A DNA stretch of 3,170 nt from positions 1 through 3,170 of the IMG/VR virus record IMGVR_UViG_3300011531_000036; one strand, 5' to 3'. The notes beneath the pieces were generated by a model that saw only the letters and a program-made list of their open reading frames with translations, made no database searches and was not told the DNA's origin. Numbering within the stretch: position 1 is the stretch's first letter; each line of letters starts with the position of its first letter. This document shows, in pieces, positions 1 to 3,170 of the stretch. This DNA is from a virus (Duplodnaviria; Heunggongvirae; Uroviricota; Caudoviricetes). The position numbers and the translations under genes were made by a program.

Positions 1-192
1 TCAGGAGCATTTCTGATTAACGCCACCGTTAAGAATCCACCCTTCAACAGCTTCACGAAGGTATGATTTGGGGTGGGTTCTGACTGGCTTCGGAAATCCG
101 TGCCGTTTGGTATAGTTCCAGATTGTCTGACGTGATGAAACACCGAGCTTGTTCATCACTTCTTTCTCAGGAATCAGGCTGGTATCGGTCAT
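1..192 (-). CDS. AlpA/Xis-family small helix-turn-helix DNA-binding protein, probable prophage excisionase or regulator (63 aa)
   Basis: Complete ORF: ATG at 192-190, TGA at 3-1. GGAG (plus-strand ctcc at 200-203) lies 7 nt upstream of the ATG. The segment LIPEKEVMNKLGVSSRQTIWNYTKRHGFPKPVRT...W has the AlpA/Xis pattern: a short helix-turn-helix with the 'TIW/TIY ... FPKP' signature and a conserved Trp near the C-terminus. Its position at the distal end of a leftward operon fits xis. Family call is from recollection, not a search. Confidence 0.7.
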   Translation of the reverse strand: MTDTSLIPEKEVMNKLGVSSRQTIWNYTKRHGFPKPVRTHPKSYLREAVEGWILNGGVNQKCS

Positions 193-206
193 CTTAATTC
201 TCCAGG

Positions 207-230
207 CAAAAATAAACCGCCATATAGCGG
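207..230 (-). terminator. Weak hairpin plus U-tract immediately upstream of the AlpA/Xis-like gene (candidate intrinsic terminator or attenuator)
   Basis: Plus-strand ccgc (217-220) pairs with gcgg (227-230). On the minus-strand RNA this gives CCGCU-AUAU-GGCGG (4 GC pairs plus one U-G), followed by UUUAUUUUUG (216-207). The stem is short, so stability is marginal. Alternative reading: the loop sequence TATATG could be a -10 element for the downstream gene. Confidence 0.3.
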
Positions 231-353
231 CTCTATCAGATATGAACAGGCCTCATCGAGTGTGAGGCTGGTTAGTCATTGCGTAGCTCGCTGATTATTC
301 TGTAAGTCTCTGGTGCTTTGCTATCTCACGCAGTGCCTGATAGTCAATCTTGT

Positions 354-593
354 TCACTGGTTGCCTCCTTTGCGGATCTGCGCTGCGATGCACGAAAAAA
401 AAGACTCCCGCGTATGACTGTTAAGAGCTGGCGCGAACGCTGCGTTAAGAACGGCAGCATCACAGCCGTCATCGATATAGAGCGCAATTTTTTTCTCCAG
501 GCGCGCTTTGGCTTCCTGCAACTGCATACCCCGGCACGCACGCGGGATATAATCAGCAATTTGAGCGATAGCTTTTTCGTTCTGTTTAAACAT
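354..593 (-). CDS. Hypothetical small phage protein (79 aa)
   Basis: ATG at 593-591 with GAGGT 5 nt upstream (minus strand). The start overlaps the stop of the upstream 67-aa ORF in an ATGTTTAA arrangement (shared nt 586-593). Balanced amino-acid composition. No family recognised. Confidence 0.55.
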   Translation of the reverse strand: MFKQNEKAIAQIADYIPRACRGMQLQEAKARLEKKIALYIDDGCDAAVLNAAFAPALNSHTRESFFSCIAAQIRKGGNQ

Positions 594-789
594 GCTTCAC
601 CTCGATAGGCTTGATGGTGTCTAACAGCAGTCGGCGGCGCGTATTTTCTGCAAAGTGGCGGCGTCCAGTTTCTTTGTGGTAAAACTCGTTTTTGCCGACG
701 ACCCACATCCGTTCTGTTTGGTGCAATTTTTTTACCTGCGGTCCATCTTTGGTGATCACGGTACCGGTATGGGTTTTTACGATTGTCAT
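586..789 (-). CDS. Hypothetical small phage protein (67 aa)
   Basis: ATG at 789-787 with GAGG about 7 nt upstream. The ATG overlaps the TGA of the upstream PAPS-reductase-like ORF as ATGA (786-789). No family recognised. Confidence 0.55.
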   Translation of the reverse strand: MTIVKTHTGTVITKDGPQVKKLHQTERMWVVGKNEFYHKETGRRHFAENTRRRLLLDTIKPIEVKHV

Positions 790-1664
790 GCCACTACCTC
801 TTCGAATTTCAACTCCAATTGGTCACCCCAGATTTCACATGATTCGGAACACGAACCAGTATCAAACCGCTTGGCCAGCACCATCGCCTGATACAAACTT
901 CTGTAGTCGCTGTCGGCATACATTCTGGCAATCCTGTCAAGCGTCAGGTGACCACGGTACATAACGTCTTTACCTGTTCTGCGATGACCATCCCGGACGT
1001 GTTTGCCTGTAACCAGTTCATTAAAAACCCGCATCAGACCAGGTTCGTCTTTACATGCGATCCCCAGCTTTTGCGTTGACTTTTTGATGCAGAAAACACA
1101 GTTCCCGAGGTGCTCCGGGATTTGCAAATCAAAAGGTTGTTTACGCCACCACCGGATAACATCCGACTTATCAAAATCTGACAGCTCGGCAAGATACCGG
1201 ACGCCCGGTTTCGGTTTCAGCCTACGGTGTTCGTCCGCACGAATACCCAGCCATGTGATGTAATTCCCTCGCCCAAAATGGTCATCGCAATATTTCGTGA
1301 AAGGGGTGAGTTTTAGCCTGTCAGTACAGAATGCGCCGCCGATGTATGGCGTACCGTACTTTTTAACCATGTCCATAAACGGTTTAAGCACCGGCATTCG
1401 CGTCTGAATATCCTTTGGTTCCCATTCCGTATAACCATTTGGCTGCCCAAGCTCTGGATTTATATCGACCTGCAACACAGTTAGCGGTATGCCCCAGAAC
1501 TTCACAACCTCCCGAATAAAGCGGTATGTCAGCGGATGTTCGCAACCGGTATCCATAAAGATGTAGCAGACGTTATTGCCAGCCTTTCTTTGTTCTTCCA
1601 TCAGGTGAACAAGATATGCAGATGTTCTCCCGCCAGAAAAACTAACTACATGAGTTATGCACAT
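786..1664 (-). CDS. Phosphoadenosine-phosphosulfate (PAPS) reductase family / PP-loop ATP-pyrophosphatase-fold protein, phage-associated (292 aa)
   Basis: ORF of 292 aa. N-terminal VVSFSGGRTSAY resembles the PP-loop SGGxDS motif. The segment FMDTGCEHPLTYRFIREV aligns by eye with the conserved CysH block ILTDTGYLFPETYRFIDEL. There is a CxxC (NCVFCIKK) and a C-terminal Cys cluster (GSCSESCEIW). The ATG at 1664-1662 lies 4 nt upstream of the upstream gene's stop codon (TAA 1657-1655; ORFs share nt 1655-1664), so the weak SD is compensated by coupling. Confidence 0.85.
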   Translation of the reverse strand: MCITHVVSFSGGRTSAYLVHLMEEQRKAGNNVCYIFMDTGCEHPLTYRFIREVVKFWGIPLTVLQVDINPELGQPNGYTEWEPKDIQTRMPVLKPFMDMVKKYGTPYIGGAFCTDRLKLTPFTKYCDDHFGRGNYITWLGIRADEHRRLKPKPGVRYLAELSDFDKSDVIRWWRKQPFDLQIPEHLGNCVFCIKKSTQKLGIACKDEPGLMRVFNELVTGKHVRDGHRRTGKDVMYRGHLTLDRIARMYADSDYRSLYQAMVLAKRFDTGSCSESCEIWGDQLELKFEEVVA

Positions 1665-2191
1665 TTGCGTAATTCCGATAACTCGTTGAAGCGTTCCATA
1701 AACATCCCGTAGGCATGGCCCGGTGCCAGTGGAATCACTTTGAACATCTCTGTTGCCGGGATACCTTCCAATACAGGCCAGAAAGAGCCATCATCAAGTC
1801 CGAGATCGCGGCGTTCGGTTGCCAGCATGATGAGATCGGCATATTTCACTGGCGTGCTCATAACAGGAGGTAACCCGTATTTCTCACGGATTACGGCGTC
1901 TATTTTTTCTTCCATCCGTTTATAGTCAGGAAGAAGTCGTTTCAGTGGTGCGGGGATGTCATGGCAATACGCTTCTGTTGCATCATGCATTAACGCTTCA
2001 AAAGCAAATTCCTGCGGCACCAGCTGGCTGCAAAGCACCGCATGCTGGGCGACACTGTAGAAGTGTGAAAGATGTCCTGCAAAGCGACAGATATTTGAAA
2101 GGGAAACCGCGATATCGTTAATAACGATGTCGTCTTTATTTATCTTGTCATAATAAAAATGCTTCCCGGAAAAAGTTTTAATAAATGACAT
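1655..2191 (-). CDS. yfdR: HD-domain phosphohydrolase, YfbR/YfdR-family 5'-deoxynucleotidase (178 aa from the ATG at 2191)
   Basis: HD motifs are visible: RFAGH, then ALMHDATEAYCHDIPAPLK, matching the YfbR-type block ALxHDAxEAxxGDxPxPxK. The preferred start is the ATG at 2191-2189 with GGAG 6 nt upstream; the ORF track's 187-aa version starts at an in-frame GTG at 2218 with no obvious SD. The 178-aa length and prophage context match my recollection of E. coli CPS-53 YfdR; the symbol is assigned from memory, not a search. Confidence 0.85.
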   Translation of the reverse strand: MSFIKTFSGKHFYYDKINKDDIVINDIAVSLSNICRFAGHLSHFYSVAQHAVLCSQLVPQEFAFEALMHDATEAYCHDIPAPLKRLLPDYKRMEEKIDAVIREKYGLPPVMSTPVKYADLIMLATERRDLGLDDGSFWPVLEGIPATEMFKVIPLAPGHAYGMFMERFNELSELRKCA

Positions 2192-2315
2192 TTTGTTCTC
2201 CACGTATATGCGCTGCACCGCGCTGAATTCGGGTAAAAGGAAGCCCTCACCGTCCGGCGATTATTGAGTCAATTACATTTCCATAAATGCCCCCGTAGGG
2301 GCGGTTAGTTTCTCC

Positions 2316-2404
2316 ACAAAACAGAGAAGAACACCTGCGGTGGCAGCCGCCCGGATGGATTGGGTTATGAGCCCGTCGTCCGGTGATGCTCTTCTCTGTT
2401 TTGT
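2316..2404. repeat. Perfect 15-bp inverted repeat (acaaaacagagaaga at 2316-2330, tcttctctgttttgt at 2390-2404) enclosing a 59-nt GC-rich insert that can form two further hairpins
   Basis: Verified base by base. Inner helices: gcgg/ccgc at 2337-2340/2347-2350, and ccggatg/cgtccgg at 2351-2357/2377-2383 with a nested ggg/ccc at 2362-2364/2372-2374. Overall a three-way-junction-like fold of 89 nt. Lies in a region without credible coding potential. Confidence 0.8.
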
Positions 2405-2449
2405 AAAAAGGACGGTACCAGCCGGAAGCAAGGGTACAAGCTGGTACCG
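2403..2449 (-). terminator. Candidate rho-independent terminator on the minus strand (10-bp GC-rich stem plus U-tract)
   Basis: Perfect inverted repeat cggtaccagc (2413-2422) and gctggtaccg (2440-2449) with a 17-nt loop. On the minus-strand RNA the stem is followed after 3 nt by UUUUU (complement of 2409-2405). The loop is larger than typical, so it may instead be a structured RNA element or protein-binding palindrome. Confidence 0.4.
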
Positions 2450-2480
2450 CCAAGACTACACACAGCATAAAGTTGTGGTG

Positions 2481-2500
2481 CCGGGTGCCTCCCGGTGCCT
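2481..2500. repeat. Tandem decamer ccgggtgcct / cccggtgcct
   Basis: Two adjacent 10-nt units differing at one position. The second unit overlaps a 6-bp stem, gcctgg (2497-2502) pairing with ccaggc (2516-2521). Confidence 0.7.
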
Positions 2501-2590
2501 GGCGAAGGTTGCACACCAGGCGGGTGGGTATCCACAGAAGGTCGACTGTCAGCCTCAACCTTAACCCGCGTGCGCTGAGCCGCATTCACC

Positions 2591-2720
2591 ACAACGCTAA
2601 GGATTCTCTCTGGTTGAAAATACTTAGCTGTTATGTGCCTGCTTTTAGCCACATCAGGCGAGGTGGACCTAGTTATTCCCCAACAACAAGGATTCGGTTA
2701 ATCTGGTTATCCCCAACAAC
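2591..2720. promoter_or_regulatory. Degenerate direct repeats upstream of the 144-aa ORF (candidate operator/iteron-like sites)
   Basis: gttattccccaacaac (2672-2687) and gttatccccaacaac (2706-2720) are near-identical, 34 bp apart; the second ends 15 bp before the ATG at 2736. A looser module, acaac..aaggattc..ctgg, recurs at 2591-2613 and 2682-2705. No convincing sigma-70 -35/-10 pair could be placed by eye. Confidence 0.45.
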
Positions 2721-2735
2721 GTAAAAGGAAAAGAA

Positions 2736-3170
2736 ATGTCCGGTAATATCTATACGCTGTACAAATCCCACTGTGAAAATGTTGGAAAGTATCGGGGCAT
2801 TGAAATCAGTGGGGTAGTGTCATCAGTCGAAATAAGCAAAGTTGAATCAAGGGCAACATTACTTACTCTTTTGGACCTTGTTTTACATGAGCACCGGAAG
2901 AAATTCGGCACTCCCTATAATCAGTTGAATGGGAAAAAGGCTCTGGTTCACCTTATTCTGATGAAGCATCACTGGATGCCAAAACAGATTAATGAGATGA
3001 AATTTGATGAACTTCTTCTTTCAATTCAGGATGAACTCACACTTGATAAAATAAGCGTAACCGCCCAGAAATTTTTAGATTATCGAGACTGGAGATCACA
3101 AATTCATCACTTTGATGATTTTGACGAAAATGAATGGGATCCTAATTTGTCTGCACAATATCTAAAGTAA
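2736..3170 (+). CDS. Hypothetical orphan protein (144 aa), AT-rich moron-like gene with an acidic C-terminus
   Basis: Complete ORF: ATG 2736 to TAA 3168-3170, with AGGA 6 nt upstream (2726-2729). No competing ORF on either strand. About 38% GC by hand count (2741-3170), against about 58% in the adjacent non-coding region. C-terminal third is rich in D/E (HHFDDFDENEWDPNLS). No family recognised. Confidence 0.75.
   Translation: MSGNIYTLYKSHCENVGKYRGIEISGVVSSVEISKVESRATLLTLLDLVLHEHRKKFGTPYNQLNGKKALVHLILMKHHWMPKQINEMKFDELLLSIQDELTLDKISVTAQKFLDYRDWRSQIHHFDDFDENEWDPNLSAQYLK

Follow-up and report, generated by a model that had tools for sequence, protein, structure and literature searches.

A yfdR-type gene and an orthologue of phage lambda ninC meet at a ten-nucleotide overlap in a prophage early operon: probably two independent accessory genes

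Introduction

Two genes that overlap by a few nucleotides are the subject of this study: a yfdR-type HD-domain phosphohydrolase gene and, downstream of it, a gene for a protein of the phosphoadenosine phosphosulfate (PAPS) reductase fold. Both lie in a 3,170-nucleotide stretch of caudoviral DNA (IMG/VR record IMGVR_UViG_3300011531_000036, positions 1 to 3,170), hereafter the window. The YfdR protein of Escherichia coli K-12 is an HD phosphohydrolase whose affinity for nucleotides is much below that of YfbR; it binds domain I of DnaA, and it inhibits initiation only if over-supplied together with YfdQ plus YfdS or YfdT (PMC4776307). The second gene has its closest described counterpart in lambda ninC, which is non-essential and whose function is poorly understood (PMC10695390, PMC3224144); our literature search found no mechanistic study of NinC. 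In Vibrio, the p0018 gene (P0117) of phage 44E38.1/41E34.2, encoding a fusion of a PAPS domain to a Dam methyltransferase, was moved together with p0019 into a sensitive phage, which then escaped the host Dnd system (Piel et al., bioRxiv 10.1101/2021.05.05.442762). A 2026 paper cites this result as evasion of Dnd promoted by a phage PAPS reductase, and reports that PAPS reductases cluster in anti-defence hotspots (PMC13551039).

The initial annotation of the window, made from the sequence alone, had taken the coupling of the two genes as the sign of one functional unit acting on nucleotides or nucleic acid. Here, from surveys of both genes in viral and E. coli genomes, we come to another view, which we hold to be rather probable: the yfdR-type and the NinC-like gene would be two independent accessory genes and not a dedicated two-gene machine.

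Results

The start codon of the NinC-like gene (ATG, 1664-1662) stands 4 nt ahead of the TAA that ends yfdR (1657-1655), and the two open reading frames (ORFs) share 10 nt; on this geometry and on the coordinates of the pair (786-2191) the initial annotation was correct. Both ORFs are on the minus strand, which that annotation left unstated. We fetched 80 near-identical yfdR loci, 79 of which could be analysed. The out-of-frame ATG located 10 nt before the yfdR stop is kept in all 79, and the gene that starts there is YfdS/DUF551-like at 60 loci, NinC-like at 16 and Ea22-like at three. When the window junction is aligned with a K-12-type yfdR-yfdS junction, identity extends through AAATG(T/C)GCAT(A/G)A, and divergence is complete directly past the yfdR stop codon. 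Likewise, in an alignment of ninC from four contexts, homology begins only at about codon 4 of the gene. Judged from these alignments, the embedded ATG is part of the conserved yfdR 3′ end and provides the start of whichever gene comes next. Because it serves three different downstream genes, we read the overlap as a generic module junction, or cargo docking site. The suggestion that the slot after yfdR is a variable cargo position, made with reference to the K-12 prophage CPS-53, where, as we confirm, yfdR is followed by yfdS and yfdT, is thus borne out. The claim that the overlap marks one functional unit does not survive, since the embedded ATG serves different downstream genes and each of the two genes is common without the other. 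Moreover, successive overlaps of 10, 4 and 8 nt occur along the minus-strand gene run; since they run through the whole operon, tight coupling is not peculiar to the yfdR/NinC-like pair.

We then looked at the pair from the NinC side. Relatives are encoded on 570 viral stretches, from which 80 loci were fetched (IMG/VR); 75 of these were analysable, representing 41 lineages (70% identity). Only eight of the 75 loci have a YfdR-like HD gene next to ninC, and all eight carry a NinC at least 93% identical to that of the window, from the E. coli lineage. The co-occurrence across prophages envisaged in the initial annotation therefore fails outside one E. coli prophage lineage. In a Pfam scan of the 57 de-duplicated upstream neighbours, no lineage but that of the window had an HD family, the remaining neighbours including replication initiators (7), DnaB (3), NinB (3), Dam (3) and MT-A70 (1). 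The recurrent neighbour clusters of NinC are DnaB, CI-like repressors, O/DnaD-like initiators, NinB, Q and NinG, together with RusA, DUF968, and YqaJ and SNF2 helicases, that is, an ordinary lambdoid replication/recombination region. Unrelated upstream neighbours also precede the same gene in Stx2a phages, at 92% nt identity, and in a plasmid prophage of 99 kb, at 94.6%. At one locus, L040 (IMGVR_UViG_2902081170_000005), a 54%-identical HD protein is encoded 4.5 kb off, on the opposite strand and uncoupled; no other NinC locus outside the E. coli lineage has a YfdR-like gene in its flank.

Among 5426 complete E. coli genomes, 2948 carry a RefSeq-named yfdR at about 96% nt identity to the HD gene of the window, 423 carry the window's ninC allele and 283 the yfdR-ninC junction; about one third of NinC copies are thus found without yfdR. 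Of 589 E. coli matches to the ninC allele, 74 lie on plasmids of about 90-100 kb, presumably phage-plasmids, and the occurrence of such copies indicates that ninC circulates between integrated and plasmid prophages. On the one whose context we examined, pE2865-1 (NZ_AP018809.1 77765-88605), ninC has nearby genes for Ea22-like, DUF551, PNKP-type HAD phosphatase and metallophosphoesterase proteins.

These counts bear on the reading closest to the initial annotation, in which YfdR and the PAPS-like protein form a two-enzyme module, the HD enzyme supplying or clearing a (deoxy)nucleotide for adenylation or thiolation by the PP-loop enzyme, with a nucleotide-pool or DNA-modification role. The 10-nt translational coupling agrees with it, as does the junction itself, which 283 E. 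coli genomes carry (about two thirds of the close copies of the ninC allele), and both families act on nucleotides or nucleic acids. However, the ATG behind the coupling belongs to yfdR, where three unrelated downstream genes make use of it, NinC lies downstream in only about 10% of the yfdR-carrying E. coli genomes, and some 40 other NinC lineages, those of lambda, the Stx2 phages and the plasmid prophages included, have no adjacent HD gene. Lambda NinC is itself coupled in the same manner, to NinB. We found no link between the chemistry of YfdR and NinC. The distribution of the genes largely refutes the module, which we regard as very unlikely. In the scenario that we favour, that of two independent accessory genes, mosaic recombination at lambdoid gene boundaries would have juxtaposed yfdR and ninC at the accessory end of the early-left operon, the 3′ end of yfdR offering a ready-made, translationally coupled start to any cargo gene. 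NinC would need no help from YfdR, and only the transcript would be common to both.

The families named in the initial annotation were right. The downstream protein matches PF01507 PAPS_reduct (36.9 bits, cut-off 22.5) and phrog_424 'PAPS reductase' (7.6e-93, residues 5-291), and the upstream one matches phrog_318 'dNMP phosphatase' (dNMP, deoxynucleoside monophosphate; 2.4e-109) and keeps the HD metal-binding motif (H50...H69-D70...D119). Aligned without gaps over 290 aa, the downstream protein and lambda NinC (Orf290, lambdap64) are 78% identical and 91% similar, and in a megablast search against phage genomes the Stx2 phages annotate the equivalent gene as 'NinC'. By this measure the PAPS-like protein of the window is an orthologue of phage lambda NinC, which the initial annotation had missed. 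The window gene does not occupy the nin-region position, between the replication genes and Q, but this is a positional trait that leaves homology unaffected; an early-left-type setting of ninC is also found in Stx2 phages and in the plasmid prophage. Chain C of PDB 21fy ('PptA', 270 aa) is related to the NinC family weakly but with profile significance (E 6.4e-6); it shares the PP-loop region and has an NNCVGC motif aligned to GNCVFC; a literature search turned up no paper on it.

The HD protein falls slightly under the Pfam cut-offs (YfbR-like, 23.5 vs 25.9; HD_3, 16.6 vs 22.5) and matches PDB 2gz4, the Atu1052 HD protein, at 1.8e-13, with which its HD motif residues align. In K-12, the YfdR orthologue is a weak dNMP phosphatase. 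It is not a YfbR orthologue, because it scores only 19 against the NCBIfam YfbR equivalog, whose cut-off is 122. None of yfdP, yfdQ, yfdS and yfdT is present in the window, and the published yfdQ-dependent gene set for the inhibition of replication is consequently incomplete here.

We aligned 47 members of the NinC family, down to 29% identity. Invariant positions are S10, G12 and S15 of the SGGxxS PP-loop, G40, E42 and T46 (DTGxEH), C113, K118, G140, R142, D144, E145 and R148 (GIRxDE..R), G187-N188-C189, K195, C272 and C276, and C192 is at least 90% conserved. All family motifs (SGGxxS, DTGxEH, C113, GIRxDE, GNCxxC and the CxxxC tail) are present in the window protein. The domain is therefore not degenerate, its PP-loop and cysteines being conserved, and the family looks catalytically intact. 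The AlphaFold model of the NinC-like protein is a confident PP-loop fold (predicted local distance difference test, pLDDT, 87.7; predicted template modelling score, pTM, 0.86), in which the pLDDT drops around CSESC and lies below 50 from residue 277. Such a poorly ordered C-terminal end would resemble the flexible catalytic-cysteine segment of CysH and adenosine phosphosulfate (APS) reductase.

Could the gene then be a true CysH, that is, an auxiliary metabolic gene (AMG) boosting the assimilatory sulfate reduction of the host during infection? The PF01507 match fits this reading, as do the PHROG label ('phosphoadenosine phosphosulfate reductase', 'auxiliary metabolic gene') and the presence of CysH and APS reductase among the top matches of the fold searches, which are all superfamily-level and cover about 160 residues. 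Nevertheless, the protein reaches only 20.3 bits against the 154-bit cut-off of the NCBIfam CysH equivalog NF002537, and the sequence match to CysH/APS reductase is limited to about the first 70 residues. Where CysH has SSSFG, the NinC-like protein has SFSGGRTS, a canonical SGGxxS ATP-pyrophosphatase loop; the ECGLH catalytic cysteine motif is absent, the tail being TGSCSESCE, and the NinC family is fused to DNA methyltransferases. We consider a CysH function scarcely credible. Since the ATP-pyrophosphatase loop is kept, the CysH model is failed and the ties of the family are with DNA methyltransferases and Dnd escape, the AMG label appears to be a misnomer, and the PHROG/RefSeq naming of the NinC family as 'PAPS reductase / cysH auxiliary metabolic gene' is, on its motifs and profiles, almost certainly wrong. 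Among the defence profiles of PADLOC, the best match is SspD (1.8e-15, 55 bits; residues 5-148 against profile positions 2-121 of 277), those of BrxP and DndC being weak (DndC, 15-16 bits).

The strongest link of the NinC family across lineages is to DNA adenine methyltransferases, by fusion and by adjacency. Among the ten longest representatives scanned, five carry a Dam domain (PF05869; two N-terminal, three C-terminal) and one a D12-class domain (PF02086). All seven tested viral ORFs of about 480-600 aa are NinC-Dam fusions, and ORFs of this size occur at ten of the 75 loci. At four more loci a separate Dam or MT-A70 gene stands immediately upstream of ninC, and the prophage of E. coli XDL, related to that of the window, has its own PF05869 methyltransferase about 5 kb from ninC. 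The NinC-type domain of the Vibrio p0018 protein is 55% identical to the window protein over 283 aa (E 3e-107). We considered p0019 as a counterpart of the HD protein and rejected it, as it is a DUF6475 protein without similarity to YfdR.

These links also bear on the nature of the substrate. A NinC-type enzyme might act on RNA, for example in tRNA thiolation as TtcA, TtuA, NcsA and TilS do, and so tune translation or evade anticodon nucleases. Against this, fusion or adjacency to DNA adenine methyltransferases of three families is repeated, the typical neighbours are replication and recombination genes, the nearest defence-system profile is SspD, and the sole genetic evidence points to Dnd, which is DNA-based; we find an RNA substrate unlikely.

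The features of the window are collected in Table 1. An IMG/VR prophage contig (L008) matches the window at 100% identity, and the prophage of E. coli XDL matches its full length at 96.8%; in XDL the corresponding DNA forms the int-proximal end of a leftward early operon, in a lambdoid/P27-like prophage integrated near sbcB. The AlpA/Xis-like gene stands at the end of this early-left operon, int adjoining it in the matching prophage. Public databases already carry both exact proteins: 337 contigs encode the NinC-like one and 11 the HD one.

Table 1. Features of the window, with the motif sites of the two overlapping genes
Feature	Coordinates	Strand	Details
yfdR-type HD-domain phosphohydrolase gene	2191..1655	minus	178 aa; ATG at 2191; GGAG 5 nt upstream; alternative GTG start at 2218
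HD dyad of the yfdR-type gene	1982-1987
NinC-family PP-loop (PAPS-reductase-fold) gene	1664..786	minus	292 aa
NinC-like gene, SFSGGRTS PP-loop	1620-1643
NinC-like gene, DTG	1545-1553
NinC-like gene, Cys113	1326-1328
NinC-like gene, GIRADE	1230-1247
NinC-like gene, GNCVFC	1089-1106
NinC-like gene, CSESC	837-851
10-nt overlap junction yfdR/NinC-like	1655..1664	minus	downstream start within the conserved yfdR 3′ end (AAATGTGCATAA)
67-aa ORF	789..586	minus	phrog_1226; 4-nt ATGA overlap with the NinC-like gene
79-aa ORF	593..354	minus	phrog_1344; 8-nt overlap with the 67-aa ORF
AlpA/Xis-like helix-turn-helix gene	192..1	minus	phrog_66 excisionase, 1.9e-8; weak Pfam AlpA match
Structured non-coding leader	2245..2640	minus	upstream of yfdR, same strand
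ECs1072-family phage-associated gene	2736..3170	plus	NCBIfam, 1.7e-46; phrog_5286

About 540 nt of non-coding, highly structured DNA separate the yfdR-type gene from the plus-strand ECs1072-family gene. The leader within it (396 nt) folds with a minimum free energy of -170.5 kcal/mol (z -7.0), with a hairpin of about 25 bp and a GC hairpin at 2288-2303, and at 2402-2625 it matches Rfam STnc100 with 43.4 bits (gathering cut-off 47; E 2e-7). In other genomes RefSeq records the corresponding DNA as a pseudogene ('frameshifted hypothetical protein'), probably through mis-annotation of an RNA element. In most related prophages (e.g. E. coli EH2252 and O26/O103 strains) yfdP and yfdQ are inserted between the structured leader and yfdR; comparison with the related locus L002 (9996-11248) places the insertion site at about 2192-2245 of the window, and both the window and XDL are without the two genes. 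The ECs1072-family gene, divergent from the early-left operon, has a GC content of 37.7% vs about 47% for its neighbours, and sits where lambdoid phages often carry morons or exclusion genes.

The 67- and 79-aa ORFs also lie 3′ of the NinC-like gene, without yfdR, in Stx2 phage VT2phi_272 and in plasmid pE2865-1. We examined them as a conserved module with NinC and rejected it, since only four of the 11 close viral loci have them and no distant locus does; several loci that are near-identical in other respects are without them.

Discussion

The pair described here would represent a chance mosaic juxtaposition of two prophage genes that were both already catalogued. What, then, may NinC do? We propose that the NinC-like protein is a stand-alone PP-loop enzyme that acts on nucleic acid in counter-defence, most likely against Dnd-type restriction, a possibility that we take seriously while giving it somewhat less than an even chance. 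NinC-type proteins would use ATP to adenylate a nucleic-acid substrate, most likely the phage DNA, and would probably transfer sulfur to it via a cysteine persulfide or an iron-sulfur site; this action could counter phosphorothioate-linked (Dnd-type) or related restriction. The role in DNA modification or protection suggested in the initial annotation is thus plausible for the PAPS-like gene alone, given its Dam links and p0018, and fails as that of a joint module with YfdR.

Several points weigh against this account as a whole. The anti-Dnd transfer in Vibrio involved two genes, one of them a PAPS-Dam fusion, and not the PAPS domain alone. We found neither a p0019 homologue nor DndD/DndE or SspB/SspC partners, whether in the window or across 27 kb of the related prophage. 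To our knowledge, lambda DNA has not been reported to carry phosphorothioates, and the chemistry of NinC may therefore differ. As for the independence of the two genes, 283 of the 423 close ninC-allele copies in E. coli genomes do follow yfdR, so that genomics alone leaves room for a lineage-specific YfdR-NinC interaction; tblastn and Pfam can miss very divergent HD proteins, and the ORF calling in the neighbour survey was crude.

The lack of a DndD/E or SspB/C partner in the prophage, and a lambda DNA that is not generally known to be phosphorothioated, would suit a different reading, in which NinC-type proteins have no catalytic role, leave phage nucleic acid unmodified and act as decoys or inhibitors, either by binding Dnd/Ssp components or by sequestering the sulfur relay (IscS). 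But the serines and glycines of the PP-loop, GIRxDE and five cysteines are strictly invariant down to 29% identity, which argues for enzymatic activity, and we judge the decoy quite improbable.

The counter-defence enzyme can be put in a broader form, doubtful but in our opinion worth stating. The whole NinC family, including lambda ninC, an orphan for 40 years, might consist of stand-alone nucleic-acid modifiers dependent on ATP and on cysteine or iron-sulfur chemistry, acting with adenine methyltransferases (fused, adjacent or the host Dam) in marking or mimicking self DNA against phosphorothioate-sensing (Dnd-type) or related restriction. If this is true, NinC would be a new single-gene counter-defence by DNA modification, widespread in temperate enterobacterial and Vibrio phages. 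Still more speculative is the extension that co-translation with YfdR, the dNMP phosphatase, aids the chemistry of NinC within this E. coli lineage. As a by-product of this work, the 'PAPS reductase' AMG label of the NinC family, used by PHROGs, RefSeq and many virome studies, would need revising.

How does the locus compare with the systems already described? The HD gene is like yfdR of K-12 CPS-53 in its nucleotide sequence (about 96% identity), its equal length, its embedded downstream start and its intact HD motif; it differs in its surroundings, the gene order in K-12 being yfdP-yfdQ-yfdR-yfdS-yfdT. From CysH and APS reductase the NinC-like protein differs in that it fails the CysH equivalog model, is without ECGLH and keeps the PP-loop that CysH has lost. 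With DndC, SspD and BrxP it shares the PAPS-reductase fold and the canonical SGGxxS loop, and its conserved cysteines are compatible with iron-sulfur or persulfide chemistry. However, the match to these proteins is confined to the N-terminal half, the C-terminal GNCxxC...CSESCE being peculiar to the NinC family, and NinC is phage-encoded, outside host defence islands, with no DndD/DndE, SspB/SspC or BrxC partner.

Lambda NinC belongs to the same PHROG (phrog_424), has every conserved motif in common with the window protein and is coupled to its own upstream gene, through an ATGA overlap with ninB. Their first 3-4 codons differ and derive from the local junction. The lambda gene is part of the early-right operon, where it stands in the nin region with ninB and ninD on either side and no HD gene nearby, whereas that of the window lies after yfdR in the int-proximal accessory region of the early-left operon, near xis/int. 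The Vibrio p0018 protein carries a C-terminal PF05869 Dam domain, while the window protein is stand-alone, a single domain of 292 aa. The two share the PP-loop, FCTDR, GIRADE, GNCVFCIKK and CSESCE, all kept in p0018, which is likewise an accessory gene of the phage early region and shows translational coupling to the gene upstream. Since p0018 alone in the family has genetic evidence for a role, and lambda NinC shares 78% identity with the window protein and 50-55% with the PAPS domain of p0018, the role of lambda NinC is directly testable in E. coli with existing Dnd+ strains.

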